NCBI GenBank assembly: GCA_964187785.1
Contig: OZ076409.1
Coordinates: forward strand, 36,644,001 to 36,708,000
Direction: 5' to 3'
From: Amphiscolops sp. MND2022
Lineage: Eukaryota
Length of the DNA: 64,000 nucleotides
The notes beneath the pieces were generated by a model that was not told the origin of the DNA, searched no databases, and saw nothing but the letters and a program-made list of their open reading frames with translations. Numbering within the stretch: the first letter of the stretch is position 1; every line of letters begins with the position of its first letter. Below, in pieces: positions 17,121-59,563 of this stretch. A program made the translations under genes and the position numbers.

Positions 17121-18044
17121 GTAAGTTCATGTCATCTTTCATCACGTTTTGCCGTGATCAGCTTTCGTGCTTTCCTCATTCTACATGGCCTTGGTCATAC
17201 GTCATAGCAGTAGTATTACGATTTTACTGCCAGAATATTTTTTCACTTTAAAAAGAAATGGAAACGAATGGTATTACCAATTCAACGTAAAATTTACGTT
17301 GAATGAGTAAATCAAATTCCCAATTATTCAACCAAAAACGTCTTTGGTATTCAACTTTTGCTTCAAACAACCGTATACGCATTAATTTTTTTCATGTTTG
17401 TTATTTATTCATAAATTGTTGATTATTTAGTCATAACATGGTCCTGAATGAAGGAAAAAGTGTCAATTTCATCGACATATAAAAAACTGCACTTTCATGA
17501 TAGAAACCGGAATGGATTTGATATGAAAGGGTGAATTTCAAACAGCTAATTTTTTTCTTGATTATGAAACTGATATGAACATAATAAACTTTCAAAGGTA
17601 GCAATTAATGCTAGTTATAAATAAGATCACTGAATTCTATTTTTATTTTCTTTGATTCTTTCTCCTGGTGAAATTTCCTTCGCTTGTATGAATCTTGAAA
17701 GTTTTAGTTCATTCTATTTCAACACATCATAAAGAACGCACCAAAGTTACGATGCATTTTGGTCTGATTATGAGATTATTGGAAAGAATTGCGTTAAACG
17801 CAAGTAATATTTCAAGGAAGAAATCACTATTTTAATGAGCTATAAGCACTTTAAGCAATATATGCACCTAAACAGCTTCGACGTGACATCATTATGTAAT
17901 AGAACTTTTGTTATGTCAAACTAGATCATTCATCGAAACAATATATTGACCTGAAAGAGCAGCTTCCAATGTCACTTGGTTGACCTCTTAGGGTCAAGCT
18001 TCTCATCTGAAAGGGCCATGACTACAGTTTGCTGACATGAAAGG

Positions 18045-18352
18045 TTAAAGTGCGACCTGATACATTCCGCTGGAGATGAGAAACAAAAGTAAAAACATGA
18101 TCTGTCCCCCTGTGGAATAAACGACTGAGTAGAGGGCGGGCCAGAAATGGGCGCTGATGAAACAGATCCAACAGAGACAGGTGAGAAAGTGTAGGGAGAG
18201 CTGTCTGACGATGCGCGGGAAATACTCCTTCTCGAAGGTGATGGCAGTGATGTGTTTCCACTGCTGGGGCTTGTCTATCATCTGGTACCTCGTGTTCAGG
18301 GCACTCAGAATTGACATCACCGACATTATGCTACCTGCTACCAGCAACACGA
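18045..18352 (-). CDS. Nested 7-TM gene, last exon (IVLLVAGSIMSVMSILSAL...FLTCLCWICF...FLISSGMYQVAL*)
   Basis: TTTTTCAG acceptor in phase 1, three hydrophobic segments, TAA stop. Confidence 0.75.
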
Positions 18353-19491
18353 CTGAAAAACAACAAACAGTGACAATTCATATCTGTTCAGTCCTGTACT
18401 TCACAGTGTTATATTTTGTGGCATCTAATGACGATAAGAAACAAGGTAGAAAAAGTTCTTTGTAAAATATAACGACAAAGGCTGGAAATTTCTCCGCAAA
18501 AGAAGCTCTCAAATTTTAAAGGAATTGTTATCAGTAAAAACGTAGTGTGACTGCCTAGAAATTTGTCGAAACCGTACGGCAATATTTTTTTTGTCTTTTA
18601 AGGTGTAACCTTACAACGAAAGTTTTAGCTTAGTGTTCAATTTGGGAGAGCACAAAAACCACCCGCTCAAGGTTAAAAAAACATTTTTTTTAAACATGCA
18701 AAAAGTTGCGCACGAGACTGGAAAAACAGCTTTTTCCCCAACTGGAAACATCAAAAAAGTGAATTTTTGAAAAATTAATATTTTTCAAGAAAACATTTTT
18801 TCTTCGAAAAAAGTCCCATCGTGCCGAAAAAGGAGCTTGGAGCTTGCCAAACGCTTTTTTGGTCGAAAACATTCATTAAAAGGGAGGGGTACATTTTGAT
18901 CAGTTGAAATTTTTTTCGAAAAAAATTGCACTGTGCCGAAAAAAGCCGTAGGTCTTTTTCGCAATCATTGAGAGAATTCATCAGTTCCACAGGATCAAAA
19001 AATAATGGGAGACTACACTCAAGACTTGGAAAAATATTCCTTCACAAAAACCTCAAAAAACGAAAAAAGGCGGGAAACATTTCGAAAAATTTTTGATATT
19101 TTCAATATTTTAAACAATTGTCGGTAAGTTCATAGTACTGAAAAAACCCTGAAATGGAGGGTGTTCGGTTTTAAAAAATTCAAAAGGTCGCATAAATTCG
19201 AGAAACCCAAAGGGTCTCTCCTCTACATTTGCAAGCATACAAATTTCGATTTAGTGCGAGACTCCAACCCCACGTTTTCCTGCTTCTCAGACCTCGTCCC
19301 ACCTTCTCAGAAATCCTAATTAACCTCCAGGTCAAGTGGAAGTTAGAAATCACGTAGGTAACTAGTTTACTAATATAAGATGGTACTCATAGAAATCTGT
19401 CAGTTAGCTTATCTTAAAAAGCCTTTGCTTTAGTCGGGTCTTCTTTTCGAGACGCTCCGACTGAAAGGTCAAAAAATGTTATTCTGTTCAA

Positions 19492-20242
19492 TTTTTAGTC
19501 GGCGCTTCATTAAGTGAAACGCGACTATTATAGTGACTCTTTTTTCTTTTTTTTTCAATCCGAACGAACTGGCCAAAATAGTTCTTAAAAGTTCTACAAA
19601 ATATTATTGCACCAAATTGCACCATTTGGCCTAGCGAACTGAACCAAAAAAGTTTTTCCTGTTTTTCCGCGTAACATACCATACCGGGCGAGACCAAAGG
19701 GTCCCTCTTTTCAAATTTTTTCGGCACTGCGAGACTTTTTCTCGGAAAAATTTTTTCCTCGAAGGGGCCCCCTTCAATTTTTCTGCTGTTTTGCTACAGA
19801 ATGGATGTTGGAAAATCCCAAAGGGTCCACCCTTTCAGTTTTTTTGGCACTGTGAGAATTTTTTATTAAAAAATTTTCTCTCCAAAGGGCCCCCCTTTCA
19901 GTTTTTGGGCACTCTGAGACTTTTTTTCTAAAAATATTTTCTCTCCAAAGGGTCCCCCTTTCAATTTCTTTGATATTTTACAAACAACAGAATGGGTGTT
20001 TAAAAATCCCGAAGGGTCTCCCCTCTGTTTTTCGGCACTGTGAGACTTTTTTTTTCGAAAATTCCCCTTTCAACTGCGACAAAAATGCTGACAATTTCAG
20101 AAGTGTCTCCCCTTTTAGCGCGCCACTCGGTCTATTGTTTTTGGTTTTTCGATTTTCGAGTACTGTAAATTTACACTTGGAAGTCCTTTTGCTATTTTTG
20201 AGCCTTGGATATGGCGCGGATTTGGGCCGGTCCCGGCTTGTT
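19492..20242 (+). mobile_element. Family A Helentron-like element, full copy
   Basis: 5' TTTTTAGTCGGCGC...GCGACTA; 3' GGCGCGGATTTG-GGCCGGTCCCGGC-TTGTT. Reverse complement of the 2821-3467 copy. Confidence 0.8.
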
Positions 20243-22959: not shown

Positions 22960-22975
22960 AGGGAAACCCGGAGGG

Positions 22976-23089
22976 AAACTATTTCAATAAAAACATACTT
23001 TTAGGCTCGAGCGTAGCCGGTAAAATACGGAATTCCGTATTTTACCGGCTACGCTCGAGCCTAAAAGTATGTTGTTATTGAAATAGTTT
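22976..23089. repeat. Near-perfect palindrome, 114 bp
   Basis: 57-bp arms, no spacer, centre GAATTC, one mismatch. Confidence 0.95.
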
Positions 23090-23302
23090 GGTGCGGAAAA
23101 ATATCCCGCTGCGCAGTAGCCGTCTTGTTGAAGTTCCCCAACAGTCTGCCATCTCGTTTAGATGTTTTCGTCTTGAGAACTTTTCAAAGATTCCAAAATT
23201 TCACGCACAACTTTGACTCATGAGGGCTTCAGAAAAATCACGATCAAGCCTCGAATGAAATTTCAGTTGATGCTCCACCTGATGTGAATAAGAGGTACTC
23301 AC

Positions 23303-23477
23303 TGAACTTTCCGTAGGAGGAGTAATGTCTGGGGATGCGCTGAGCGGCCAGGCAAATGGCAGATGCCTCCTCGTTGTTGCTGATTTGGTTCTTCAGTCCG
23401 TAGTTGTTTGACATGGTGAAGGTGGACTCGGCCAGAGACAGAACTATCATCACTTTCACTATTTGCTTGTGACTCAC
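23303..23477 (-). CDS. Nested 7-TM gene, exon 3 (VSHKQIVKVMIVLSLAES...ICLAAQRIPRHYSSYGKF)
   Basis: TTTCAG acceptor (phase 0) and A|GTGAGT donor (phase 1); one TM plus a Cys-containing loop. Confidence 0.75.
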
Positions 23478-26277: not shown

Positions 26278-26523
26278 ATCTCTGGCGGCCACGTACCCCA
26301 TGGTGGCAATCTCGAGCCAGTTGATGGGCAGAAGAACCGCGCAGTATCCGAACATGGAGATGCCGAACACGATGAAGAAGTCACTGAGACAGTACATGCT
26401 GTCTCCCTTCAGCAGAATCGAGAGTTGCTCCGACTCACGCGACACAACGTCCAGAAGAATGAGGATGACGCCACAAGTGAAGTAGATGTTCACCACCCCG
26501 TAGATCACCCATAGACACACAGA
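26278..26523 (-). CDS. Nested 7-TM gene, exon 2 (SVCLWVIYGVV...MYCLSDFFIVFG...YVAARD)
   Basis: GC-rich hydrophobic ORF with a GAT|GTAAGT donor. The 5' boundary has no AG; the best fit is TTTCACAC|TCT. Confidence 0.7.
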
Positions 26524-26889
26524 GTGTGAAATTGAATATTTTCACATGAAAAAGACCCAAAAACTGCAAATTTATAGTATAGAGAGTTATCAGAGGTCTT
26601 AGTTTGGATTTCTTTTATTTGAGCAGAGACGAAAACGAAACATATATATTCGTTCATGGCGAAATTAAGCGACATCAGTGATGTAATTTATCATTTTTCG
26701 TAGTCTTAAAAAACGAACTTTTAGTTTCAACACGGGATTTGTCAGAAATTCTTTTATATCACTTCTTGCCAAAAGCTACTAGATGCGCTGGTGGATGGTA
26801 CTTTTCGATTCAGCCTAGCGGTTAACGCGTATCTCTATGATTGCTGACGGGGCTGTGAATCAGCGGTATATGGGTTATGTGCGCATGGG

Positions 26890-27057
26890 AGTAGTAGAAG
26901 TACGTGGCATTATAGAAGGGGGGGGGGGGTTGAGTGAGTAACCAAATATGGTTATCAAATACTTTCGCAATCATGACGTCATTTTGGAGTCCGCGTTATG
27001 ACCATATTTGGTTACTCACTCAATCCCCCTCCTATAATGCCACGTACTTCTACTACT
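26890..27057. mobile_element. Short MITE-like inverted repeat (~60-bp arms, ~45-bp spacer)
   Basis: AGTAGTAGAAGTACGTGGCATTATAG...GAGTGAGTAACCAAATATGGT and its reverse complement. Confidence 0.6.
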
Positions 27058-40815: not shown

Positions 40816-40936
40816 AGTTTAGGTTTTCAAAGTTGATATATGTGGAGCATCGTTGGTTATCATTTTTTGTTAAAAGTTTTAACAAAAAATGATAACCAAC
40901 GATGCTCCACATATATTAACTTTGAAAACCTAAACT
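40816..40936. repeat. Near-perfect palindrome, 121 bp
   Basis: 60-bp arms around a single G (TTAAAA-G-TTTTAA). Confidence 0.95.
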
Positions 40937-41075
40937 TCCAACTCCCTGAACGTAAAACTACCTCATTTTCTGTCACAGACTACCTTAAACTTGAATATCA
41001 AAAAACTACCTAGAATGCAATGATCCAGACTATCCAGATATCTTTTACCCAGAGTAAAGATCCAGAGTAGAGATT

Positions 41076-42590
41076 ATGTCGCGCAAGTTCGTACCAGACC
41101 ACGTGAACCTTCCCACGGTGCCTGGATCGCCTTCCACTGCGGAAGAGGAGACGATGGAGGACATAGAGACGGAAGACACAAACCCAAACATGGAAAACTT
41201 CAACTCGGAGCACGAAGTGTTTGTGGAACCGCATTCAGACGACAAACAAGAGTTCATCCCTGTTCCTAGGAAGCCATGCTCATCCATACAACATGTTACA
41301 AGATCATTTAGGCTTCGATGTTTATTCACAAGCAACAAGCTGTGGAACTTTCGTTTCCATTAAGGAGAGAAAAAAAAACAAAAATTAAGTTGAAATCGAT
41401 TCAAGTTTTGCATAAAAATGGAAGGATGGACATGGCTGTTCTCAGGTCTAATTTCTTCACAAACCCAATCTTGGAAGCTCCTCGGCCGGCAGTCACTGTC
41501 AATGTAGTCAGTGGGTCATTGAAAGGTCGCAGTCGTAAAGACACAAAAAGTGACTCTTCATCTAAGAGTCAGTCGCACAAATCATCTACGTCATCACTGA
41601 GTCGCGTGATGACCCCTGGAAACGTTTCCCGAGAAAGTGGGTACATAACCAGCACCCAGAGAACTGAAATTGGTTGGAATTTTTTTGCTTTTCTCCAGTT
41701 TTTGTGGCTAGAAATAGCCAAACATGTTGTATACGATTTTCGATTGTGTCTATCTTGAATATTGCGCATGTTGTGGCGCAATCCAAAAAAGCCTCTGTTT
41801 TGTTTTAAAAGAGAAACTCACTAGAAAGTATAAAATTTTCGTTTGGGGAAAACAAAAAATTGCCAGGTATCATCAGTCCCAGCAGAACTGGATCGTATAG
41901 GAGCGAAACTGGTGTTAGAGTCACCCATAGACAAACATCTATGGAAACGCCTGGATCTGTTGCAACTACAAGTTCCCAACGTTACAGAGAATTACCTCAA
42001 GTGTTTTTCAACGCCAACAGTCGGAGAAAATCTTCTGCTGAAGGTTAGAATCAAGAAAATGCCTGGTTAGAGTTCATGATCAGTGTTTGACTTGGTGATT
42101 CGTTTGAAGGGCGAGAAGTGACTGCGTCAACCGCTTCGAGCAGATCTGTGGTGAATTCAGGCACCGTTCAAACTGCCCATGAAAACCTGGAAGATTCGGA
42201 AGATTTTGTATTCACAGATTCTTGCACTGCAAGTGATCAGAACAGCGAAGGGAAGCGTGTACAGATAGCAGTTGGTTTTCGATTTGTAGTTCTTGCGAAA
42301 CAAAGAAAACCCAAAATTTTCATTTCTGGTATTTCAGACACCTAGCGGCGGCACGAAAAATTTTTCGCCCTCCAAGTCTTCGCATTCCCAAGCAGTCTCG
42401 TCGGGTCCGACAGGAAAAAGGTCATACGACACATTGTCATCGGTAGAATCTTTGAAGTCTCCTCTCAAAGTGTCCTCGAAAAGGTCATCTGTAATAGCCG
42501 AGGAACAACAAAACCAACTTGAAGAATCGCTACTTCTGGATTTAAGCACTCTAGGATCTTCTCCTCGAAATAGAGTCGGTGGTTCTTCGG
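41076..42590 (+). CDS. Same-strand nested gene, exons 1-5 (approx. 41076-41269, 41446-41640, 41877-42043, 42110-42258, 42338-42590); acidic then Ser-rich low-complexity protein
   Basis: ATG at 41076 and a chain of phase-compatible AG/GT-bounded ORFs with consistent S/T/G/E/K composition. The first donor is ambiguous. Confidence 0.65.
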
Positions 42591-43177
42591 GTACTTCTCT
42601 TTCTTCATTTTCTTAGTTTTTTGCCCACATACCAACCTTCTAACATCCGAATTAAATTGGATATGGTTCTAACTGTGCTGTTTTCTGCCCCCGCTATCAA
42701 AATATTTTAAAGGAAATTTACGAGAAAATTTTTGAACTGGCCGAAATAAAAGTATTTTTTTGATAACAGGAAGTTAACGTCGATTAAAATAGTTTTTCGT
42801 TTGAGCAAACACTTTTCACAAAGTTTGACTGTGATTATGCTCGAATCAACGTTTCGTTTCACTCAAAATCAAAACAAAGTGTAAGTTGTCACGCTAAAAA
42901 AAATGTTTAAAATGAAGGTTTCTGGTCTGGTTTTGGGTTTTTTAAAACTTTTAAAGCTTGGAAAAACCTAAATCAAAAAGAATGTAGTAGAATACAGTAG
43001 ATCCAAAGTTTGATACTTTCGAAATCATCAAACTTTCTGAACATGAAAGCAGTTCTTTTTATATCAATTGACTGTTTGTAACAAAAATTTAGAAAATCCG
43101 CGAAAACGATCGTTTCACATGTATAACTGACTCACACAGCCATAAAGCGTTTTGTAATATTGACAACGTTTCAAAAG

Positions 43178-45770
43178 ACAAGACGCCTGCTGACCAGCGG
43201 GATATATTCCGCCAAAAACTGTCCCACTACGACGTGATTTTGAGGCTCAAAAGTAGGCAATGCACTATGAAAACGCATAGAAGTTCGAAGGAATGAAAGT
43301 TGTCAACTTTTTGATTCATCCTTTCCCATTTTTAGGGGGAACACCTGATTCGAGAATACGTGAAGTACCGATTTGTCTTGTTGTTGAACTAAGTGAACAC
43401 CAGTACCTAACCTACCAAATATTTATGTTTATATACACGAAAAGTCACTAAATGTTTGAAAAAAAGAGGTTTTCCACTCTTTTGGGTAATTTTGACGCGC
43501 TTTTCAAACACCAAACTGCACATATCTTCTGAAAAACGCCTACTGGATATCGGACTCAGTGGATGGTGTATATTCACACCAATCTAGCACGCCAAAAAGT
43601 TGAAAGGCTTTCCAAAAATTGCATGAGAATGTCCAACACTTTTCGGTTTTTTGGGGTTTTCCTTTGTTGTTTTTTTTGTACCAGAAAAATAAAAATTGCA
43701 AAAGTTCCAGTTGGAAGGCGCACTTATTAGGTAGTCGTTTCGTCTTCCTAATGAAAAACAAATACTGAACAGAAAGGTCGAAAAAAAACATGATTCTGAG
43801 GAATTGTTTCAGAACCAATAGGTAGTTTTTGCAGTAGTGCAATTTCGTTTCTAAACCCGTACTGGTAACTACATGCTTCAACCCTGAGCCTCTGTAGTTT
43901 CTAATTTAGAAAAACGTTCTGAAAATGTCCATAAATGGGAAAATAAGGTCAATAAACTAGAAACTTTGGAGTTAATAACTCCTTTGTTCCAATATTCAAA
44001 GAACTTTATCCCATTTTCTTGCCCAAGTCGTGTTTTGAAAAGCCTATTGTTTTCACGTTCAGGTCAATAGAAGTTTTTTCTACAAAACTATTGTGAATCG
44101 AACAAAAACTGGCGCTTAATAAAAGGAAATTAGAACGGGGGAAAATAACGAATAAGCAACAGCAATTTTCTCCAAAAATATAAAACTTACGCGTTTGATC
44201 GTTGTTGAAGGTTTTCATCATTCTACCACAAGAAACTTCGGGACAATTTTACAAATCTTGCAAGAAAGATATCAATTTTGAATAATTTGAGATTTAGACG
44301 GTTTTTGTCAATTTGTGGTATTGTTCATTCTAAAAATCAGCCATTTTTAAGTTAAAGGAAGTACTGCCTTGCTAGATAATTCGTTTGGAGTCTAAGTTTT
44401 CTTCTAATTTCCAGTCTTTAATCAAAAAGTCTACAAAACAAATCTAGAAAAGTGATAAAATGTTAATTTCCGACACCTTTGAGGGCAATTTGCATACACA
44501 AACAAAAGCATGCGGACATCTCTTCGAAAAGCCTACTTGTGAAAAGTTTCATTCCCCTTCGAACCATTTCAACTTTTTAAGTACAAATATTCTCAAAATT
44601 TTGATCAAAGTTACATAAAAACTTCAGAAAAAACAGAACTGTCCGATCTTGCGTCTCATTTGGAGTCTTTCTGAAGTGTTTTTCTGAAGAACGTACCACT
44701 GCAACTTTCTCAACGAGAAGGTGCAATTCACAGCTAAATTTTTCGTCTGTGAACTTTCATAAAAAAAGTAGCAACTTGCATTTTTTATATATTCTGATTT
44801 CAAAACGTTTCTAAGATTAAACACGTTGCATAACAACGTGAAGATTTCGGATTTTTAAAATTTTTTGTCCCATTTGGAGTCATTCTGAAGTGTTTTTGAA
44901 GCAAAAAAAAGCAAAAAATGTACTGCATATCTGGTGCCGTCGTCTTTGAATGTTTCGAAGCTTCTAACCCATGCAAACCCTCGGAAAGTGAACCAAATTG
45001 TATGAAAAATGACAAAGCTAGAAAATTTTGGAATATGTTTTTTTTGTGTCCTTATGAGACTTTTTTACATCTAACTCAAGCATTTATCTCTTCACAAAAG
45101 TCTACTGGACAACGACTTTTTCTTGTTGAATGCTTTCACAATTTATTCTGCAATTTCTATGAAAAATTTGATAGTTGTTGCATAAAATTGTGGAAACTCG
45201 AGTTTCCGTCAATTTCATTTTCAATTTGAGGCTTTTTTTTATCGGAACACTGCATTTAGTTTTCAAGAAAAACCTCCTGGATAACATTTTTTCTTGTTGC
45301 GTCTTTCATCTTTCTAAGCAATGCAGTCTACCGATAATTAGACAAAATTTGCAAAAAATATGTAAAAAAGAATCTGAAATTTTCGGAACTTTTGTCAATT
45401 TCGGTAAAACTTTGAGGCATTATTCCATCGAAACGCTGCTTTTATTTTATCAGAAAAACCTCCGGGACAATAAATTTTTTAAATTGAACGTTTATAACAT
45501 TCTAAGCCACCAAGCCTGCGAAAAATGCATAAAAACAGTAAAAATTGGTTTTTGGTGTCTTTTTGTGTCATTCTGCGGTTCTTCGGGTCAACTAAAAAAG
45601 TCCAAAAATCTCAACAAAACGATATCGCATAAAACTAAGTTTACCCCCCATGGAATTCCTTGGGTGAAACCCTTTAACTTGGTTTTAAATTTGAACATGG
45701 CAAATTTTGTTAAAAAAACGCGGCTGATTCAAATATTTTCTTTTCCCATATAAAATATGGGCGGGTGTAA
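43178..45770 (-). mobile_element. Family B Helentron-like element in an intron of the nested same-strand gene
   Basis: ACAAGACGCCTGCTGACCAGCGGGATATATTCCGCC (reverse complement of the 3' end) at 43178; reverse complement of the 5' end (ATTTTCTTTTCCCATATAAAATATGGGCGG) at ~45735-45765. Confidence 0.7.
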
Positions 45771-45815
45771 TAAGAAAAAGCAAGAGTCTCGTGGGTATTT
45801 GTTGTATGTATTCAG

Positions 45816-48800
45816 CTCAGATGTACAACAACAGCATGCCAGCAGCACCCTCGTTGTACCCTGGGGCAACTCATAGTTCCGACAGTTCTTCTCTACTCGC
45901 TCCACAAATAAGAATTCATCTAACACATCAAGACAATCGTGGTCAACTTGATTCAAGGCTGGTATCGTCTCCAATTCTCAATGGGATTCATAAATCTCCC
46001 GCTTTATGAATAACTTTTGACAAAAACAATGTTACAAATGAGCAAAAGGGTAACCCGATAATTTGAACGAACAGAACGGTATTGACGAAATCTGAAATTC
46101 ATACGGCAATGGACTTTCAGGGACATTTTGAGCAAGTTTTTGTTTAATGCAATCTTTATCCCGCTGTAAACTCAAAAGATGACAGTTTAATATGAAAACA
46201 AACAAAATTAGAGATCTGCCAATTCTTCTGATTATTCAATGTCATCCATGTTTTTGACCAATTGTTTGTCTACACGAATACAGCCAATTGACTGCAGACA
46301 ATGTATGGCTTCAGTGATGCTTTTATTCCACGTATCCGCTTGCAAAAGTTCGAGTTTTCCAGGTCAATTCATCCTAGTTCCTGGGGCAGAACCCCTGTGT
46401 CTTTTCCATCTATGCCGACTTCGAGAACAACGAACTCCTCTGGGAGTGGCTCTTCCTTCTCTTCCTACAGTCCTTCGTTCTCCCATCAGTACTCCAGCCC
46501 CGAGAAAACAAACAACCATAGGGACCGAGAGAGATTTCCTTCCGACATCAGGACTATGACCTACAGCAGTTACACTGAGGTGCCTTGCTCTACTTGCGAC
46601 AACGAAAGTTTCTCCAGGTTTCAAACTTTGCCAGTGGTTTCAGCAAAAAATGTTAACCACAAGTCTCAAGGCGACAAAATCAATAATTGAATTTGAAATG
46701 AAATGTTTTCGTCACAGGAGCTATGAAGAATTTATGCAAACGGAGCACATCACCGGAGATGGAACCCAGCGAAACTATATGAGTTTGTTCACAGGCACTG
46801 AAATCCCACTTCTAACTCGCAGCGTTAGGACTCAATGTTTTCTATATCTTCCCCGGTTTTCGAAAATGGTAAAAAGTGGTATTCAAATAACTAAACACAT
46901 ACTTTACCCCATTACTGTTATCAAAAATCCTTGCTCTTAATTGTATAGACGGGACTATAGTGAGCTCGAAACTTCAACAGACAATTGATAAATTGCTGAT
47001 CGGAAAAGAATATTTGATAGTTTTGTTCAAGTCTTCGTATTATGATCATAGGAAATCTATTTTAGTAGTTTTACATTAAAGATGCCATTTTTACGCCAGG
47101 GGGAGACAACAACAACTAGACCTTTTTCGTTCGGACAACAACTCCACCCTGACTTATTACGTCACACAGCGTCCAATTTGAGTGACACAATCGCTGCTAA
47201 TTTTGGTCGTCTTCAGAAGATACCGCCCGTTGTAAGGACAGCGATGAGTGCGCAAGAAGTGAAAAGCAAAGGATCTAGGTTCGGTTCTAGCTCCACCTCA
47301 TCCTCTTCAAAGCGTGCAGAAACTGCGAATGAGGATACTCCTGGAGATAGTGCAAGTGCAGATGACACGGGAACTGCGAAGAAGACTTGTGAGGTCGTGC
47401 AGAGTTTGGTCGATGATATTGAGTCAGAGGCAGGGATTAAAGAACCGGGTTATAATAAATAGTTAGGAGTTAACTCCTCAGAAAGACAGACTCCTCGCAG
47501 GAAATTGAGTGCACTCGATTTACAGAAACTTATTGACACGTTGGAATGAGGATGTGCAAGATTATTGTATTTTTTGGAGATTTTTCGAAAATCAAAACAA
47601 GCTCATGAGGACCCTTTTATGAGCAAACAGCTCATTGTCTCAGAAGTTTTTCCTAATTCCTTTCGACCATGAATTCCTGTCTATTCCGTTTGCTTTGATG
47701 AAAAATGTCAATGCTAACTCTTCATCCCTTCAACGGGGCAATCGCCTTTTGGGAGTATTTTCTGGCATTGATTTCGTCTGTGTTTGACTTATGTTGTTTT
47801 TATAATTCAGCCAAATAAATCAAATATTATTAATATTAAAATACCGTTTAATCCTCTACCATGGTTTATTAACATTACTTAACCCTACGTTTGTTTGGCT
47901 GTCATTCATAATCCCTGCTGGGACCCTGCAGGATGTGAACGGAGAAGAGGAGGATTTTGAGGAGGAGCTGGAAGGGGGAGAAGAAGAAGAGGAAGCAGCA
48001 GAGTTGGGGGAAGAAGAGGGGAGAGCTAGTGAAGGTACCAGGGTTGTTGAATGACTCATTCATTCAAGACTCTCATTTTCACCTGAACTATCTAACTGGT
48101 TTCTAACAGACAGGAATCATCCCAGCGTGATTCTAACAGAATATTAACTTTTGTACAAAGAAACAACTTCGAGCCAAGCTGGCAACGCTAAGGACCGTCA
48201 ATTCATGTTATTATTTTTTATGCTAATTTTTTCGAAAATTCTGCGAAACTAATCAAACAACATCTGTGTGTATAGTTTGGTGTATACAGATTGTGTATAA
48301 ACATGTAGTTTTTGACATCCCTGACAGGCACTCAACTGGGGGGAGCAAGCACCCAAGAGTCTGTCAAGTTCTCAAGGACAGGATACACGGTGCCTACCAG
48401 CAGCCAAGACCAGCAAAGCACAAACAGCAAGACCTCCCTGAGAGAGAGGGTAGCTAAGTCGGCCGCCACTAAAAGCAGTGTCTCGTGGAAACCCTCTATT
48501 AAGACATATTCATCAAACTCCATGAAAGACACTGAGCTCAGCTTCGTACGTTATCATGATAACCTTCTCTTCAATTGCTGTGTCTTAAAGAGGACTTTCC
48601 TTGTTTCAGGAACACGCATTTGAGGATGTTTTTAAAAGATTAGATAAAAGTAACCTTGACAAAATATGTCTATTTCTTATTCCAGCCAAAACGCTGTTGT
48701 TTTTGATTTCTATTCAAGCCATCTTTCCACGGTAATTCACAAAAAACGCATTTTCAGTGTTTCCTATCATTATACTTGCTAGTTTGTTGACAATATTACA

Positions 48801-50660
48801 CAAGGAAAATTTAGAGGGAATAACTGTAGTTTGTAAAACTGACCAGGAAGAGTTTATCTGCACTGCTGGATCTGTATGTGACTGCACACAGACTGACGAG
48901 AGTGGTCTCACAAGAAGCAGCAAAAATAAATCCCAGGCCTCACAGAGCGAGGACTTGCTAATCGATGACCTTGAAGAGGATGCCAACGATGGGGGCATGC
49001 AGACCCTGGGGTCAAGTGGAGGCGTTATGAGAAGCACGACCAAACGTAGCAAGACTCCATCTAGGTCAACCGGTCCGACTAGATCTGTGGTCAAAGTACA
49101 TAAACTCACTTTGCGCTTGTGGTTCATGCAATTTTTGAAATTTCAAACGAACTTTTTTTAGACCGAAAGCGGAGAAGAATATTTTCTGCCAAATGCTTTC
49201 TTCCCGATAGTGACTCTTGATATTTTCTCGGTAGTGACTATGTAGTGTTTAAGAACAGTGTTTATTAACAGTTTAATAACAATAATAATTGAACTTGAGA
49301 AGTTTTTCCGATTTTTATAAACTCGCATGCATGTCATTAAGCAAAGTGAGTGTTGTAGAGCTTGAAAAGTGGCGGATCCGGTATGAATTCCAAGCAGCCA
49401 TCCTTGTCTAAAAAGTCGTTCGACTTCAGCAAGAAGTCAGGCAGCAAATCAGAACAGATAAGTGAAAAGAGCCGATCCGACTCGTTTAACCAAACCAGTT
49501 CGACCGGCCCCAAGTATGGGGAAGGTCTGTCTGGAGCAAGTTCCGAGATGAAAGGTTCTCAAAGTCTTTCGGGATCTGGAGGTAGTTTGGCAAAGAGTGA
49601 AACATTGACAGGAGAAAACCTGCGGGGTTCTTCGGTGAGAGTGGATACTGTAGTTCAAACTAGTGGGGATTCTGTTACTGGGTCCTCCAAACGAAGGACC
49701 CCATCACGAAGTACCACCCAGTCTTTCACCTCTCCAGCTTCGGGTAGTAAAATAAAAAGCGTGAAGTCTGTCAGCCAATCAAAGAAATCTTCCGGATCTA
49801 GAGCGGTGATGCCGGAACCTACACAAAGTGTTGCTGCATACCCGAAATCTTTGTCCAGCAGTGGCCCCAAGTTAGGCAGCAAGATGATCGCTCCCAAAGT
49901 AGGACCGTCATGGATTTGAACTTCTCACTCCGTAAAACTTTTAGTTTAGTGGCATCCCACTATTTTTATGTACTGTTGTAATGTAGTCTACACTGCCAGT
50001 TAGGCTACATACATGTAGGTTTAATCTGTTAGTTTCTGGTGTTAACGAGACCAAAGTTTAAAATTTTTCGCTATCGAGTGAACGATGTTTGATTTTTATC
50101 TTCGTTTTTCCTCAGATGTACCTGAAATTACCTCTTTCGCAACTGATTTCTACGAAATCTTTTGAAACGATGCGAAGAGTGGTCTAATTGTGAAAAAGTT
50201 AATCTCAAGCGGTTTCACGTTCCCGTTAGCTTTCAAGGTTAGCCCATCTGTCACTCAATTGTGCTTGATTATATTTTATGACGGCTCTTTGCTCAGGCGT
50301 CGTCAGTGGGGGGTGCTTATAACCGAAACCAAACTGGAGTTGGTACCAATGTCAGCATCAAGGCCCCTACAGCCCCGGGTGGCATGGCTGGAAGCAGCGC
50401 CGAGTCAGTTCGTAGTATGAGTCCAGCTTCATTCACAGCCGAAATAAAACTGGATCTCAAGGTAGACTTTGGCAAGGATGGTGCCATCATACAAGCACAG
50501 CCGATAGCTGCAGCGCCACCACAGAACTCCGCTGACGTTCAAAGCTCAACCGCTGGAAGTGGATCCACGTATGTGCGCAGTAGAGTACCGGACACACCGT
50601 CTTTGAAAAGCTCAACTCGGAGCACAGGATCTAAAAAATTAACGTCCACGCAGTCTTCGG
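45816..50660 (+). CDS. Same-strand nested gene, middle exons (approx. 45816-45961, 46298-46617, 46718-46823, 47217-47429, 47932-48034, 48328-48545, 48892-49095, 49359-49898, 50297-50660)
   Basis: Phase-consistent Ser/Gly/Thr/Lys-rich exons plus a poly-Glu exon (DVNGEEEDFEEELEGGEEEEE). Some boundaries (47217, 47429, 50660) are uncertain. Confidence 0.7.
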
Positions 50661-50932
50661 GGATGGATTTATATCCGACACTATCTCTTACGAAGTCTCA
50701 TAAACTTTGAACTAGTTTTTATTCAATTTTTCAACACTTTGACAAATATCAAAGCTGAGTTTAACTTAAGTAACAATTTGCTTTGTAATAGAAAATGCTT
50801 TCAATGCAAAAAGTGTATTTGAAGCTGTCGCTGATGAAACTATTGCAGTAGATCAAGAGTTTTATTCTTCCATAAGACCTGAAAAAGCATCGAAAAGAAC
50901 GATATAAATCAAGTGAAGCACGACGTCACCAG

Positions 50933-53900
50933 GAACGGGAACCAGTGGTTCCGTTGTGAACTCGGGATTGGGGGGTGATGCAGTGGAGGACGGGTCATTG
51001 CAGAGCGAGAAAGAAACGACAGGCGAGTTGTCGGAGATAAACGAGACTTCGGAGACAGGAGGCGAGCTCCTTATGGACGAGGTTGAAGACGAGGCACCAG
51101 ACGAGTCGGGTGCTTCGGACGGAACCAGTTGCGAAGATCTCACACAGGCCATGATGTGCGTGACGTTATAATTGGGTGTCATTGAAATGTTTTTTTTTTT
51201 CAATAAAAAAGAAGGTTTTCTCCCCAAGCAAAAAATTATTCAGAATCGAACATTAATTTCATCCATCTTTTCCATGTTTGAAGAATCTGAGTTTTTTGCT
51301 GTAATTTGCTTTTTTAATAGATTCTCAGACCTGTTATGTTTCCGATGCCTTTCTGACAATTATCAAAATGTCAGTAAAAGCTTTTACTGACATGTTGATA
51401 ATTGTCAGAAAGGCATCGAAAATATGACAGGTCTACAGGCCTAAGCTAATGTAGTACTTTAGTGCCCAATACTATAGCGCGTGAATTGCACATCATTCTT
51501 CTAAAGAGAATTATGCGCCCAAGACAGAACTCAGATTGCAGCTCAGATGAGAATAGACCGATACATAAGGAATGAGTCACACTTCCACGACGACCGCGAG
51601 TTGATAGAGCGACTGATGCTGCATTCTGAAGACAGACTGTCTAGGTTTGCATTCGACTACCGAGACCAGTACTTCGCCAACACAAACAGACTCATGTCCC
51701 ACTGTCACGCCTCCGAGCGGTTTCTTAAACATTGGAACCAGACCGAGAAGGCACTCTACAAGTTGTTCAGACACAACAAGTAGGCCCTGCTTAAGCAACA
51801 AACATTCGACAGTTTCAACTACAACATTGGTCTATTGGTATTCCGTATTCTAAGAAAGTATTCGTCAAACTTGCAGAACCTACTCGATTTTCACGAAGTT
51901 GAAAAATTATTTTTGAAAAATTTTCAGTTAATAATTTGCCCCAGGATCTCTTGAGGATGCTAATATGACTCGATTAGAAAACTTTTCGATTTGAAATAAA
52001 ATTCATCAATTCTGTGAATACTAGACTTCTTATGCAGTCCGATGATACAAGAGCATCTATTTGTTAATAAAGTTAGGAATGCCTGTACTCCTGAGTAAGT
52101 GTGGTCCCAAGCGATTTCTCCTTACTGAGTGTGGTCCCTATAGTGTAAGTGTGGTCCCTGCATATTTTGTCGGAAGAATTATTATAACGTAGTCAGCTAT
52201 GTTCACATACTCCTAGTGCTCTAAATGCAGGAGCGAAGCGAAGCGGAGCGACGTGCCATATGGCCATGCCTCAATGTTGCTACTTGGCGAAGGGAGCGAA
52301 GCGACCGGGCCATACAACAAATATGCTAAACTCCTCAAAACAAGTTCCATACATATTGGCTGTAACAGCACTAAAAGCTAGTAAATTCAATTCTGCTGTT
52401 TTGAACTACATGTAATGTTTGCTTTACGCTGGCTATTCTAAATTTGCTAGGGACCACACTTAGTCAGGAGTTTGCAGACCGGCTGCATAAATTTTGTAGG
52501 GACCACACTTAGTCAGGAGTACCGGAAAGCCTAATGGTTTCGCAATTTTCTCAAAAAATGGCAACTTTTTAATGAGTTGGAGAATAAATGGAAATTAAAA
52601 TGGTTTCTGAAGTAAACAAAAATAAAAAACTAATATCGGAAAACAAATTTCAATGGTAATGCATAGCGAGTTGTGAATTGCTAACTTCCGCAAAAAGTGT
52701 CACAAAAGTTTCAAACAGACAGAAATTAAACTATAAGAATTCTTTTATGCTAATGTTTTTGAAACAATCGATTATCTAAATGTATTGACATAAAGATGTT
52801 CTCGTTAAAAATTTTTTGGAGTTTAAACTCCAAGAAATTTTTATCGAGAACATCTTTAGATCAATACATTTACATAATCGATTGTTTCAAAAACATTAGC
52901 AGAAAATTAGAGTCTTCGGAGCATTAATACCAAATAAAGCTTCCATTCTTTAGTCATAAACTCTACGTACTTCGGAACAGAATAACTTTGAGCATACAGT
53001 AACGTGGTGAAATATCGCAACTCCATTGCATAAAATTGCAAAATTCAAATCCAAATATCTTAAAACCTGCCAGGAATACGAAAAATTGTCAGGTACGGAA
53101 GTTTCTTAGAATTTTTTGCAGTTTTTGAAAGCATTTGGTTGAAAAATTTGCGACAAAATTGACAAAAGTTAGAAGTTTTAAATTCTGACAAAATTTCATC
53201 GAATTTTCTTCTTGATTTTCGATATGGGTCGTAGACATTTCAAACAAATATTTTTGTAAACTAGATTAGATTCTAAGACACTTTTGTTGCTAACAATTTT
53301 TTTGTATTCATGACAGTTTGAAAGATATTCGATTATGAATTTTGTCATTTTGACAAATGGAATCGCGATATATTAGACCGCTACTGTACTCAAAACGCAT
53401 TGCTATCAAAATTAGTTTAGGCTGAAATTGTAGAAAGTTGAAAATGTATTAGGTAGAAATTGTGATCAGTTGAAATTGTTACGGTGGAAATTGCGTAGGT
53501 TGAAATTGCATAGGTTGAGATTGAATAGGATGAAATGTCCTGACATCGTTTGCTATTACAGGCAAAATGCTACTTAGAGTATTGTTACCAATTGGTTGCT
53601 ACTACGAAGTGAGCCATGAGACTAATGTTGGAACATGTTCTATGATCCTACAATGGGTTCATCGCTGTTTCTCATAGTAATCTTGATGATGTGCTTCTCC
53701 ACGGTTCTCAAAAAAATTGTCTTGATGCCCTTCAAAAACTGTATTCCTTTCCAAATCATCATACTCTATGAATTTTTTAAAGCAAAAATGAGTAAAACTT
53801 AGATATATATAATCAGAACTCACCCGAAAGCCTCTCAATTTCTTGTTGATTGTTTGCTGCCGTCAGAGACAAACCGAGGATTCCTTACCGCCAAGAGAAC

Positions 53901-55416
53901 TGTTACGATGAGAACAAAAGAAGGGTCAACCTGCCTTTCTATGGAGGGGTGGCCGCCAAAGAAAGCTTTTCATTGGTCGCCAATTTGCAGAACTCTCTTG
54001 CCTTGCTCAACCAGGGATGGGGACTATACGATTACATGATATAGATCAACGTTTGATGCTTATATTTGGTGAAGTATAATGAGGGGTTCCTTCGTTCTTG
54101 TTGAGTTCATTTCGGAAACATTCAAAGATATAATGAAACCTTTGACAAGAACTATGCAAAGTCTTGAAACTTTCATCATGTTTTTGCCATTACCGTTGTG
54201 AGCTTTTCAGTTCAATGATTTTTGTTATACTGATTTTTGCAAGATTTTTTCTGTAAGAATTTGGTATCATTTTACATGTTCAGATTGCATGAACTTCTAT
54301 CGCAAACTGGCAAATATTATTCAAATCATATACCTCAAATAATATTCTGATTTGTGTTTCGAGGAATATTTTGAGGTTGAGGATCGTTTTTGATGGACGA
54401 AGGAATAACGTGAATCTAATATTCTTATGATAAGTTCACCTTAAGTATTAGTCGAAACATTAATTAAATAAGTTTTTGAAAAACACATCTACTCTAACCC
54501 ATTTCTGAGCTTGTGCCCATCAGTCTCTGAACCAAAAACAAACGAGTCTGGTGAAAACGAATCTTCAGAATGCCCTGAGACAGCTGGTGGGTAAGAAGAT
54601 GCAGAGACCCAGTCCTATGGAGATCCTCATTGTGATGGAGAGACAAAAGCTGCGTTTCGAACTCATTCACCGCGACCTGTGCAACAACATCTCCAAAACT
54701 ACCGATGCACTCATTCAAAACGTGCGAAACTATCATCACTCGCCTTCAAACGCTTTTTTAAATTTCTCGATTGGTGAAAAAGGCAAATGTTTGATAAAGA
54801 CTTGAAAGAGATGCTTGCTTTTTCAGAAATCCATGGATTTCTCAGCTTTGTTTTTGGTTCGTAGAACTCAATCGACCAAATTCGTTCTCGATTCTGATTT
54901 ATGAACGATTACTTTCTCGGAATCGATTCAGTTTTTCTCTATTTTTCTCTCCCAATGAACCATGAGTTTTTGTTCCGGTTCGTCTGTTAATTAACGACTG
55001 TTTTCTGCTACATTTTTCTCGGAAGTTTTGGTATAAACAACTTTCGGCAGCCTCAACTTTGTTTTTCTTTGCTATTAATTGCTCACTACGGAAAGATTTG
55101 CACAGATTTCAGTAAAAAACTTAACTGCGCAAAATCTATTGGTTCCTTTGAGGGCTGGTTGCAGGTTTTACTGAAACAAGAGAAAGAAGTTTGGCGGTTC
55201 ATAGAACTGAAGCATCAAGAGATTATGACTTTGTGCAACTTCATTGCTGAGAACGAGGATGAAGTTTGGAAGAAATCCAAAGACCAGAATCAGCATTATC
55301 TGTCTCACATTGAGGTCGAGCCTTTCTACAGAAACAAGAGCGAATTCTTGCAGCATCTCAAACATGTCAGCAGAAACATGCATGATCGGATGGGCCGACC
55401 TGATGATAGAACTTGA
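50933..55416 (+). CDS. Same-strand nested gene, 3' exons (50933-51155, 51528-51779, 53867-54014, 54524-54721, 55165-55416); predicted alpha-helical C-terminal domain of unknown family
   Basis: Phase-consistent exons ending in TGA at 55414-55416. High-complexity helical sequence (MRIDRYIRNESHF...NLQNALRQLV...HLKHVSRNMHDRMGRPDDRT*). Confidence 0.72.
51327..51434. repeat. Near-perfect palindrome, 108 bp
   Basis: 54-bp arms, centre AAGCTT, a few mismatches. Confidence 0.92.
52086..52521. mobile_element. MITE, Tc1/mariner-type (TA-flanked) with IR/DR-like terminal repeats
   Basis: TA|CTCCTGAGTAAGTGTGGTCCC ... GGGACCACACTTAGTCAGGAG|TA; the AGTGTGGTCCC core occurs 3x on the left and 2x on the right. 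Confidence 0.75.
52748..52901. repeat. Near-perfect palindrome, 154 bp
   Basis: 77-bp arms, centre GTTTAAAC, a few mismatches. Confidence 0.92.
53420..53545. repeat. Degenerate 15-bp tandem repeat (GTTGAAATTGxxTAG)
   Basis: About 8 periodic GAAATTG-like motifs. Confidence 0.65.
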
Positions 55417-56594
55417 TGAGTATATTGCGATTCTGTTTTTTTTTGAAACTGTGTAGAAACAAATGATACCTCATAATTTTTTTGTATTGGTATTTCTGAT
55501 GGTATATAATTTTTATTAACATAAACAACTTTGAAGGTTATACTCATTTTTAATGGCAAAACAGCAAATTGTGCAGATGTAGATTCTGCATCAAATAGTC
55601 AGGACAAGCGTCTTAATTCATAAGTTTTCCAACAACTGAATGAATTATATCGAACTAATGACCTGTTCTGTTGATAATTCTTGACCTCTTTCCGTTAATT
55701 TAGTTGATCTATTCTTAATTTACTCAGCTTATCAGACTTATACAGTGACGCTTACGTGTAACATTGAACGAAATATTTATGGGGGAATAAGAAAATTGAT
55801 TTCTCAGCAAGGTTTTTTTACAATTTGTCCTGCTTCAATTTAATACTCAAACAAAAGTGTTCCTTCCTCAGTATTCAGTGATAAAAAATAGATTCGTTGT
55901 AAATATATTTTTAAAACTTGAAATTTTTCACAGAAAATGCGGTAAATTAGAAATGTCAATATGATACAAACTTCAATTTTCGAACTTTTTGTGCAAGTTC
56001 CGAGCAAGTTTCAGAACTTATGTTGCTGACAGTTCGGAGCGATAACTGTCTCGAAGCTTATCGGGTCTCTTGTTGAAATTTTGTAATCAGTCTGTTTCTG
56101 AAAAACATGGGCAAAAAGCGGTGGAATCACAACTTTTTACTTCTTGTTTTCACTGGGAATAAGAAATGTCCGGATGGGAAAATTTGCTATAGATGGGATT
56201 GAGCGTGTGTAGCAAAATCCACAACCAATTCTCTGGAACATCGCATTACACCGCACGGTTACGCAAATTTTGCTGGAAGCAGTAGAATCCACTAAAGACA
56301 CCCAATACATGGCGAAATTTCAGTCGCCTGGTTTCAACAATCCGCGCAGCAGTGGATTACAAAATAGATGCAGCGAAATCCGTTGAAAATAAAACTCTGG
56401 CTTTCTGATGGCTTCTTTCTGAAACAGTGGAGTTCGCTGCAACCAACTGGAAATCAGCCAAAAATTCATATGAAAATATGCTAGCGGAAATCACTGACTC
56501 ATAAACGCAAAATGTGTAATCCTTTTTCGGCAGAGTAGTGTCCAAAAAATAATTATTGAACTTTTAGTAGCCTGGACACAAATGCCTTCGGTTT

Positions 56595-56798
56595 AGAATG
56601 GTGACCTTGATTGCTGAGGTGCTCGTTCATGATAAGTGAATCTAGCGCCTGCTTTTTAAATCAAAGGTGGTTCTTTATTTAGTTTCAAGTAGAATTATTT
56701 CTACTTGAAACTAAGTAAAGAACCACCTTTGATTTCAAAAGCAGGCGCTAGATTCACACATCATGAACGAGCACCTCAGCAATCAAGGTCACCATTCT
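56595..56798. repeat. Near-perfect palindrome, 204 bp
   Basis: ~100-bp arms AGAATGGTGACCTTGATTGCTGAGGTGCTCG... with the centre at AGAATTATTTCT. Confidence 0.95.
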
Positions 56799-56876
56799 CC
56801 CAATTACCACTCTCCCAAAGAAATACTCTTCTTTTGACCTGAAGAAACAAGTTCATCAGAATTTCATTCCGTGAAA

Positions 56877-57176
56877 CTGGTTAATTTCTGTACTTCCACG
56901 CATCCATCTTCTAAAAAACTTGAGGAGTTAGGTGAGACCAGAGACCAACTTTTTGGCTATCAATTGATTCAGTTTTTAGGTTGCTGTTCAATTGTTCCAA
57001 TTTTAGGATTTAAACAAATCCTCCTACTTGACTCAGAAGTAGAGGAAGAACTGTTTATTGCCGTTTCAGCAACCTAAAAACTGGAGCAATTGATAGCCAA
57101 AAAAATGGTCTCTGATCTCTCGTAACTGCAAGATTTTTTTAGTATATGGATGCGTGAAATTACAGAAATTAACCAG
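56877..57176. repeat. Older, diverged inverted repeat with spacer
   Basis: CTGGTTAATTTCTGTA...TTTTTAGGTTGCTG and CAGCAACCTAAAAA...TACAGAAATTAACCAG. Confidence 0.8.
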
Positions 57177-57388
57177 CTTTGTAGTAGTAATAAAAGTTGA
57201 AATCTGGTTGATTAAAAAATTCTAAGCTTCGGGTCGCTCTATATCCGAATTTTTGACGTAATGTCCGAAGTAAGTTGAGCTCTACCCAAGAGGAGGCGGA
57301 GTTTCAAAAATATTGCGTTTTATCCAATTTTCTAGACCAGCGAACTGACACATTGCTTTAAGCTTTTGTATAAGTTAGTTTAGAACCA

Positions 57389-58906
57389 TACAAGACGAGA
57401 ACGTCTAAAGTCGGCGCCATATCTAAGGCTCAAAAAGCGGAAAACAATTTTTTGGAAAAAAACTTGAAATTTTTGAAAAAATTTTTTCTTTCAAAAAAAG
57501 TCGCGTAGTGCCGAAAAATGTAAAAGGGGGACCCTTCTGGATTTATTGACATACATTCCGTTGCAAAATATCAAAAAACTCGAAGGGAGGACCCTTTGGG
57601 GACATTAAAAAATTTTCTAAAAAAGTCGCACAGTGCCGAAGAAAATCCAAAGGGGGCCCTTTAGGCACGTCCAGTTTTGTGGGTTTCCTTGAAAAAGTAA
57701 ATAAAAAGTAAAAAACCAAAGGGGGGACCCTTTGGAATAACTTAGATGCGTTTCCGGGGTATTCGTTTAGTTGAAGATACTGAACGTTAACGTTCGTCGC
57801 TTCGAGTCTGTCTTAAATAAAACAAGACGGGATCGTCTCAAGTCGGCGCCATATCTAAGGCTCGAAAATATTCAAAGAACAACTATTGGAAACATTTGGA
57901 AAAATTATTTTTTTTCAAAAAAAATTTTTGAAATTTTTTTTTCGAAAAAAGTATTTTTTTAGAAAGTCGCACAATGCCGAAAAACTCAAAAAGAGGCCAT
58001 TCAGGCTCATTAAACGTTTTTACAAACCGAAAACTTCCAAAAAATGCAAGGGGTTACCCTTTGATAGAATCCGAAAATTTTCGAAAAAAAGTCGCATAGT
58101 GCCGAAAAAAACCCAAAGGGGGGACCCTTTGGTCTCACCTGCTGTACTTTTGGAAGCATAAAAATATTATGGTTTAGTGCGAGAATCGAACCCCCGCTCT
58201 CCGGCTTCAGAAATTTAGTCGAAGATGAACAACAGAACAGATGAACAAATTGTAAAAAGTGGACCATTCACAGTGAGATTGTAGGCTGAAAAAGAAAACA
58301 AGACGGGAACGTCCCAAGTCGGCGCCATATCTTAGGCTCAAAAATATTCAAGGAACAACTATTGGAAATATTTGGAAAATTTTTTTTTCCAAAAAAAGTA
58401 TTTGGTAAAAAAGTCGCACAATGCCGAAAAACCTAAAAAGAAGTCATTTAGGCTCAATCAACGTTTTCTACAAACCGAAAACTTCAAAAAAATGCAAGGG
58501 GGTACCCTTTGATAAAATTCGAAAATTTTCGAAAAAAGTCGCATAGTGCCGAAAAAAACCCAAAGGGGGGACCCTTTGGTCTCACCTGTACTTTTGGAAG
58601 CATTAAAAAATTTATGGTTTAGTGCGAGAATCGAACCTATGCTCTCCGGCTTGGTCGAAGATGGAAGATGAACAAATATGAAAGATGAACAAATTGGAAG
58701 AAAAGTGGACCACTCAGAGTGAGATTGTCAACTGAAAAAAAACTACTCACTGTAAGAGTCGGGCTTTTTTCCTTAAGGGAAAAGGCGCCGACTAACAAAC
58801 TACCCACTGTAATAGTCGGGCTTTTTTCCTTAAGGGAAAAGGCGCCGACTAAAAAAACGAGTGACTGTAATAGTCGGGCTCTTTTCTTAAGAGAAGCGCC
58901 GACTAA
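57389..58906 (-). mobile_element. Head-to-tail array of three family A Helentron-like elements with triplicated terminal unit
   Basis: The CAAGACG(G/A)GA.CGTC..AAGTCGGCGCCATATC motif restarts at ~57389, 57821 and 58297; three terminal units at ~58745-58906. Confidence 0.8.
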
Positions 58907-59563
58907 TAACTGCCAATTGACCATGGGGTTTCCAGTTCTTGTGACGGGGTCTGAGAAGCAGGAGTACGTGGGATCGAGTCTAGAACTCAACCACGCTTTC
59001 GTTGTTCGTAGACGGTCCCCCTTGAGTTTTCTCAACGGAAGTTCCCCCTTTGATTTTTAATCGGAAAAAAGCGTTTTGATAGCATAAGGCGGCCACCTCA
59101 GGTTTTTCGGCACAATACGATTTACATTAATTTTTCTAAAATTTTTCGTCAATTTGTTTTTATTAACGGTTTTTCGAAAAAAAATTGTTTGGTTAAAGTG
59201 TACTTCCTTCACTTTGATAAATGTTTATCAATTATCATGTCCCAAATTGAATAGTTTGGGAAAACGCCCTGCTTCCAAATTAACAAGCAGTATTTTTTCT
59301 ACTGCCTTCTCGATAGTGAGAACGCAATTCAGAATCTAAACATTGCACGCTAAAATATTGTATATTCATTACCATTAGAAATAATTTCATTTTGTTATGA
59401 TCGAGACACAAACATATCGTTTTATGCAAATTTTTGAAATGGCCGAACAGTATTATAAAATCCTCAGTTCTATCAGTTTGTTTTCTGCTATTGTTTTTCT
59501 GAGCAGTTTCTAGCTTTTCTTTCAGATGATTGAAATCTGACTTTCTCCGATTGTTTTGTTTAG

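Follow-up and report, generated by a model that had tools for sequence, protein, structure and literature searches.

Two neighbouring exons of a dynein heavy-chain gene lie 42,443 nucleotides (nt) apart in a 64,000-nt stretch of the genome of the acoel Amphiscolops sp. MND2022 (GenBank assembly GCA_964187785.1, contig OZ076409.1, positions 36,644,001 to 36,708,000, forward strand; hereafter the window, numbered from its first letter), and unrelated genes occupy the sequence between them. Is this interval (17121-59563) a single intron of the dynein gene DNAH7 that harbours other genes, or are the two exons connected in some other way, if at all? A sequence-only reading of the window had proposed one intron hosting two complete multi-exon genes, one of them coding for a seven-transmembrane (7-TM) protein. 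One cis-spliced DNAH7 intron with nested genes is also the best reading of the present analysis, with a probability of roughly three in four; the junction and its ancestry support it, and the attributes 'complete' and '7-TM' found no confirmation. The evidence itself covers the junction, its phase, the ancestral position of the intron and the coding signal of both nested genes.

The exon junction and the history of the intron

The exon upstream of the interval ends with TAC GA and is followed by a GTAAGT donor, and the downstream exon is preceded by a TTTAG acceptor and begins with T AAA ATG. The GT at 17121 and the AG ending at 59563 stand in matching phase (phase 2) and restore the reading frame across the 42,443 nt, so that the interval has the sequence features of a major-class spliceosomal intron. 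In single-exon searches against solved structures (DNAH7 structures PDB 8J07 and 9FQR served for comparison), query residues 3-40 of the upstream exon aligned with residues 251-288 of mammalian DNAH7, and residues 1-38 of the downstream exon with residues 291-328. Because the split codon corresponds to residue 290 and the flanks account for residues 249-289 and 291-328, no DNAH7 residue is missing or doubled at the junction. The in-frame join and the length given in the sequence-only reading were thus both borne out, the latter by the coordinates, the GT and AG and the phase. When scored against the DNAH7 residues expected next, the acceptor at 59564 reached 42 and the runner-up 16; since it was the sole good partner among the 645 open-frame AG sites within 46 kb of the donor, a chance pairing can be dismissed.

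The nine dynein exons between 247 and 60407 form 450 codons without a stop, and include one GC-AG intron and one 21-nt microexon. They cover the N-terminal tail only; four of them align collinearly with DNAH7 residues 163-388, and no paralogue does equally well. Exon 6237-6448 matched DNAH7 with E 3e-23 and paralogues of the DNAH3/DNAH12 type with 9e-6 or worse, while the two exons downstream of the junction matched DNAH7 only (E 2e-17 for exon 60224-60407, residues 331-388). By this test of the N-terminal tail the gene is predicted to be the orthologue of DNAH7, a single-headed inner-arm dynein of class DHC7 (PMC5100056). It differs from the solved DNAH7 structures in a lineage-specific N-terminus and an insertion of 40 residues. 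Nine tblastn searches with DNAH7 queries detected no second copy of any dynein exon in 17121-59563 (the best match starting inside the interval had E 0.2). Exon 247-463 had been overlooked earlier.

We compared the junction with 68 DNAH7 protein matches of 124-2000 residues, none of which was the window's own protein. The best of these came from Convolutriloba macropyga (XP_075255201.1, here P0001), with 93% identity over 6237-6446 and 85% over two exons. The motif that precedes the junction was present in 48 of the 68, and 26 of these 48 stopped exactly at the junction, five residues past the Trp of the motif. Such C-terminal stops look like gene predictors reading into the phase-2 donor. The C. 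macropyga RefSeq model is one such case: it has 441 residues, ends at this junction and is named 'uncharacterized' and not partial. A long intron that defeated the predictor fits this ending, but the same picture would result from a gap (contig N50 0.19 Mb; PMC13650328), from a partial duplicate or from a genuine division of the gene. The earlier expectation that predictors would split this locus agrees with the model, although the reason for its end is not visible; the truncation of the closest annotated relative at this very junction, under an uninformative name, is a warning for annotation. C. macropyga also has a second, near-identical partial 5' copy of DNAH7 (P0060, XP_075255991.1, 185 residues); its contig equals that of P0001 in length, and the copy is either a local duplicate or a leftover haplotype.

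Thirty-two metagenome loci were fetched, and the 15 that reached the junction were informative. Eleven of them carry a phase-2 GT at the same place, with no read-through. The other four (L003, L004, L005 and L008) are intronless at the junction; their coding sequence is uninterrupted over at least query residues 135-437, so that they lack not only the codon-290 intron but also the adjacent ones. In the four loci where its size could be measured, the intron had 64 (L002), 66 (L007), 92 (L006) and 736 nt (L028), compared with 42 kb here; in the remaining 7 of the 11 intron-bearing loci the next exon was not found on the contig. Locus L002, 74% identical to the window, has the same peptide and donor, and the same stop and Met codon flank its 64-nt intron. 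Locus L001 (83%) agrees in the position of the donor, after which its contig runs on for about 210 nt and ends before the next exon is reached. That 11 of the 15 informative loci share the intron, with identical position and phase, indicates that it is ancient; its position and phase are ancestral, and it was formerly short. This ancestry, together with the 64 nt in a close relative, strengthens the interpretation of the interval as one intron. A tree of 18 rows, from which P0016, P0040 and P0043 were omitted for lack of an extractable motif, grouped the window with C. macropyga and L001 with support of only 84/73, with L002 also near. Sequence similarity and base composition likewise point to an acoel, probably a convolutid. 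With the state before expansion visible in a relative (64 nt against 42 kb), the history of the nesting should be traceable across acoels. The remaining dynein introns of the window range from 79 to 6977 nt (among them 4508, 3395 and 6977), which suggests that introns have been stretched generally in this genome.

Two smaller differences in the tail were seen between these sequences. Exon 9844-10017 encodes approximately 40 extra residues that C. macropyga and L001 have in common with the window and that L002 and other animals lack. The intron preceding this exon in the window is absent from L001.

The two genes inside the interval

The antisense gene has three identified exons, all within the host intron, which join via strong splice sites into 243 codons and a stop. 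The translation of 243 residues, incomplete at its 5' end, contains five segments above the hydropathy threshold and a weak sixth, and is predicted to be a multi-pass membrane protein. An antisense gene for a membrane protein therefore survives from the earlier proposal; the assignment to 7-TM proteins is no more than a conjecture, as there are five segments plus a weak sixth and, exon by exon, no 7-TM family profile or solved receptor matched. Its single exons, which are weak queries, gave no Pfam match under E 0.05, a best E of 0.31 in PDB, and Atlas scores under 0.9. Nor could the gene be called complete: its 5' edge offers neither an in-frame ATG nor an AG acceptor, and on the minus strand between 26560 and 59560 no candidate for an upstream exon exceeded a score of 7, the best ones being very short or else shadows cast by forward-strand exons. 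An out-of-frame ATG at 26512 lies in a run of three G (26505-26515, minus strand), and because the codon bias starts right after it, an assembly indel or a frameshifted allele is possible at this point.

The second gene lies on the same strand as the dynein gene. The proposal of about 19 exons was confirmed in outline, the hand-built model closing as 19 exons and 1465 residues with GT-AG introns throughout, and by this model the coding region runs from ATG to stop within the one host intron. The predicted protein contains 17% Ser, is of low complexity over its N-terminal 80%, and has a helical-looking C-terminal part. Stop-free stretches of at least 100 codons in 41000-55420 amounted to 5149 nt on the forward strand and 1476 nt on the opposite strand, as compared to 1011 and 844 nt in the preceding gene-free stretch. 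An exon-chain program trained solely on the other three genes of the window (dynein, membrane and TLC) scored 127 on the strand of the gene and 70 on the opposite strand, as against 24 and 20 for a gene-free stretch of equal length. The G+C content at third codon positions (GC3) was 0.50, compared to 0.64 in the dynein gene. The search results suggest an orphan or very fast-evolving gene: no viral stretch matched exon 51508-51780 (0/5), and the other exons, covered by a Pfam scan only, had no Pfam match. For exon 51508-51780, recognition 2076 of the Atlas gave unnamed clusters at 0.92 with about 160 shared features, which we treated as noise. A coding-looking segment, 47394-47540 (forward strand), falls outside the model; over 47394-47549 the frame of exon 9 continues past a lone TAG (47460-47462) for about 28 protein-like codons, and this TAG may be part of a tiny intron, a premature stop or an error.

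The donors modelled for this gene, also overlooked earlier, appear to be weak. None of the 18 ends in AGT, whereas in the other three genes (dynein, membrane and TLC) 11 of 12 donors do, and when only introns of at least 250 nt were counted and one more weak TLC donor was added, the figures were 0/13 and 9/11. By leave-one-out matrix scores, the median donor reached 0.0 in this gene and 4.5 in the others, and the median acceptor 2.2 and 5.4. Unlike random GT sites, the same-strand donors have A at +3 (8/18), G at +5 (7/18) and G at -1 (8/18), each about twice the background, but these enrichments are partly circular because the modelled sites were picked by eye. A GTAC start, spotted after the fact, occurs in 5 of the 18, compared with 4% in the background. 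Weak donors are what selection against mis-splicing predicts. Whether an 18-intron same-strand gene truly uses a distinct style of weak donor that hides it from the splicing of its host is doubtful, though it is a milder and likelier novelty than fission of DNAH7. The idea lends itself to a genome-wide test of donor strength in same-strand against antisense nested genes.

How could such an arrangement work? The DNAH7 gene, for an inner-arm axonemal dynein, would be transcribed through 17121-59563, and the stretch removed as one ordinary GT-AG intron. The short ancestral intron may have grown to 42 kb in this lineage through repeats and the uptake of two unrelated genes with promoters of their own; as both bear introns, they would have arrived by insertion or rearrangement at the level of DNA, or gained their introns afterwards. 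The antisense membrane gene presents no splice sites to the dynein pre-mRNA, but the same-strand gene does so with about 19 exons, and has a 3' end as well. Most likely these exons are skipped by the host, whose own donor and acceptor are near consensus while those of the nested gene are weak, and skipping could be aided if the two genes were active in separate cells, such as ciliated epidermis for the host and germ line for the nested gene. Weak sites and separate cell types would together let a 19-exon gene persist in the intron of a host. We infer the splicing of the junction in RNA, the arrival of the genes, the skipping mechanism and the cell types.

Nested genes as such are well known, amounting to about a tenth of the genes in fly, mouse and human (PMC3814207; PMC11694760), and introns have been described in a review as neutral ground colonised by genes (PMC3488318). 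According to the Drosophila study, 71% of nested genes are antisense, and 73% of the same-strand ones have a single exon, the rest having a median intron number of one; nested genes on the strand of their host are fewer and testis-enriched, for which the authors invoke selection against mis-splicing (PMC3814207). The statement in the sequence-only reading that nested genes are mostly antisense thus holds for Drosophila, and for mammals weakly (PMC11694760). The window resembles the Drosophila pairs in that a conserved host carries fast-evolving, unrelated genes in one intron and both orientations occur; it differs in that the same-strand gene here has about 18 modelled introns. Such a gene inside a ciliary motor gene is of a kind that, under the mis-splicing hypothesis, is expected to be rare. 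A further parallel is reported for the ctenophore Hormiphora californensis, an animal with spliced-leader (SL) trans-splicing, in which 2357 nested genes reside in 1654 hosts, often several multi-exon genes per host, many of them parallel and 484 doubly nested (PMC8527503). Nesting was established there by Iso-Seq in a compact genome of 110 Mb, whereas acoel genomes are of about 1 Gb and repeat-rich and the present case is known from DNA alone. A literature search that did not extend to most subscription journals returned no paper dealing with this locus or with gene nesting in acoels. The arrangement is already known as a kind, and the result is a modest one, mainly of value as an annotation warning.

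One intron against other explanations

Several observations weigh against a single intron with nested genes. Neither gene has a detectable homologue: the last exon of the membrane gene retrieved none among 70 candidates, and exon 51508-51780 of the same-strand gene none among 21 candidates and none among 1.84 billion representatives. The weak-donor result depends on the hand-built model, and of the 18 donors and 18 acceptors in this model the automatic exon chain recovers just 6 and 8, respectively. Random GT sites would equally lack AGT (background 1.3%), weak donors are likewise seen in short dynein introns of L001 and L002 (AGT in 2/9) and at one site of the TLC gene, and the intron overall is not depleted of strong forward-strand splice sites. 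As the motifs in the interval have no strand bias (GTRAGT 15 vs 15, TTTYAG 72 vs 71, AATAAA 40 vs 38), they provide no independent sign of an intron read on the forward strand. No recursive splice site was found there with a strict AG|GT pattern on the forward strand (0; shuffles expect 0.8). Finally, a C. macropyga model ending at this donor would follow equally from a true split of the gene.

A true gene fission at the old intron is unlikely, though by a small margin the likeliest of the alternatives. Translation of the 5' part would then read through the donor and stop (Glu followed by TAA, 17121-17124). The 3' part would be a separate transcript, either SL trans-spliced at 59563 and starting at ATG 59568 or joined to the 5' part by trans-splicing, and the intervening genes would be ordinary neighbours. 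Besides the stop at the donor and the in-frame ATG four bases past the acceptor, it can draw on XP_075255201.1, which ends at the same residue without being named partial, and on the partial 5' copy P0060 of the same species; 30% of Symsagittifera genes are reported to be SL trans-spliced (PMC9911081), split dynein heavy chains are reported from Giardia and basidiomycetes (PMC5100056), and no skipping of 19 same-strand exons would be needed. However, an identical stop and Met codon enclose an intron of only 64 nt in L002, so that they are better taken as an inherited predisposition than as a sign of fission, and the ends of 26 of 48 predicted proteins at this point, from many animals, have purely annotation reasons. 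The two halves have moreover retained order, strand, phase and consensus splice sites, and neither exon chains nor promoter evidence pointed to a new 5' end ahead of 59564. The dyneins of Giardia and basidiomycetes, whose parts are reported to be trans-spliced or separately translated, have those parts on different chromosomes or broken at places unrelated to introns, whereas the halves here are collinear and flank an ancestral intron. There is an outside chance that DNAH7 is split in convolutid acoels into a short tail protein and an SL trans-spliced, motor-bearing gene with unrelated genes between them; if true, an animal axonemal dynein heavy chain would be built from two genes.

An assembly artefact, in which a foreign block was joined between the two exons, also seems improbable. 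Acoel genomes are repeat-rich, with reported contig N50 values of 0.24 Mb and 0.19 Mb (PMC9911081; PMC13650328), and 43% of 55420-59563 is repeated within the window. Against this, the window contains no gap (no N), its G+C content is level at 37.2% (the genome of Symsagittifera roscoffensis is reported to have 36.7%; PMC9911081), and repeat families are common to the inside and outside of the interval. Two mis-joins would be required, both in one intron and with order and strand kept. A long intron at this site is plausible for the lineage, since the C. macropyga model breaks there and L001 has more than about 210 nt.

It is very unlikely that what looks like a same-strand gene merely supplies the dynein transcript with alternative 3' exons, the product being a long Ser/Thr-rich protein fused to the N-terminus of DNAH7. 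The phase of the host, phase 2, recurs at the start of six modelled exons (exon 2 at 41446 among them), and a phase-2 AG precedes the ATG at 41066; but for any one exon such agreement has a chance of one in three, an ATG and a GC3 of its own mark the gene, and no such fusion occurs among the 68 DNAH7 matches. That an insertion broke this dynein copy, or that the halves are two truncated paralogues, with a working DNAH7 elsewhere, recalls the partial duplicate P0060 but is hardly credible in view of nine open exons with intact splice sites and a GC3 of 0.64, and of halves that are exactly complementary with no duplicated exon in the window.

Other features of the window

The coordinates of the features are collected in Table 1.

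Table 1. Exons, genes and the putative giant intron located in the window (P0001, XP_075255201.1 of C. macropyga).
Feature	Positions	Strand	Remarks
DNAH7 exon	247..463	+	66% identity to P0001 85-151; GTGAGT donor, in frame with next exon; 5' edge undefined, gene begins upstream of window
DNAH7 exon	4972..5185	+	P0001 152-228, E 7e-8; canonical sites
DNAH7 21-nt microexon	5554..5574	+	Frame kept; peptide also in P0001
DNAH7 exon	5654..5735	+	P0001 252-269; phase-0 GCGAGT donor of GC-AG intron 5736-6236
DNAH7 exon	6237..6448	+	Mammalian DNAH7 163-231; 93% to P0001 over 6237-6446
DNAH7 exon with lineage-specific insertion	9844..10017	+	In frame, canonical sites; insertion at same place in P0001 and L001
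DNAH7 exon before giant intron	16995..17120	+	Residues 249-290
Putative phase-2 GT-AG DNAH7 intron	17121..59563	+	42,443 nt; ancestral position
Membrane gene, last exon with stop	18045..18352	-	TTTCAG acceptor, open frame to TAA
Membrane gene, middle exon	23303..23477	-	TTTCAG acceptor, GTGAGT donor
Membrane gene, first identified exon	26278..26526	-	5' edge not pinned down; codon bias from just after out-of-frame ATG 26512
Same-strand orphan gene	41076..55416	+	Hand-built model of 19 exons, 1465 residues, all GT-AG, open from ATG to stop
Same-strand gene, C-terminal exons	51507-51779, 53867-53948, 54524-54721, 55165-55416	+	Helical-looking; boundaries inferred
DNAH7 exon after giant intron	59564..59683	+	Residues 290-329; first in-frame ATG 59568
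DNAH7 exon, last dynein exon of window	60224..60407	+	Residues 331-388+, E 2e-17
TLC-domain gene	61131..64000	-	Exons 64000-63860 (off window edge), 62995-62644, 61393-61131; open three-exon frame

A third gene, with a TLC domain, lies antisense beyond the last dynein exon. Two of its exons matched Pfam PF03798 with E 6e-4 and 3e-4, covering the complementary profile parts 2-137 and 122-197 of 198; scanned exon by exon, each scores below the curated cut-off of the family. The sequence-only reading had placed this gene in the intron after 60407 and counted three nested genes as a minimum. The existence of the TLC gene was upheld, and a dynein donor at 60408 stands upstream of its exons; its nesting is no more than probable, as the window contains neither the 5' part of the gene nor the dynein exon that comes next. 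A query for that exon taken from L002 had no match in the window, the best (E 0.15) lying elsewhere. The TLC gene probably sits inside the next dynein intron, provided that the dynein gene continues, which leaves two genes inside the 42-kb interval and a third that is likely only.

Rfam gave no matches in the window. Arrays of a 15-nt unit in both orientations occupy 15333-16772, just upstream of exon 16995, and a 49-nt tandem array of about seven copies lies in the giant intron at 37137-37475. Broken frames on the minus strand between 28600 and 33800, especially at 30632-31164, include one that is coiled-coil-like and have no Pfam family; our guess is that they are probably decayed transposon remnants. 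Near-perfect hairpin inverted repeats, resembling miniature inverted-repeat transposable elements, occur at 22976-23089, 40816-40936, 51327-51434, 52743-52906 and 56595-56798. Their arms measure 54-100 nt and their loops 0-4 nt, and one of them lies 140 nt before the ATG of the same-strand gene.

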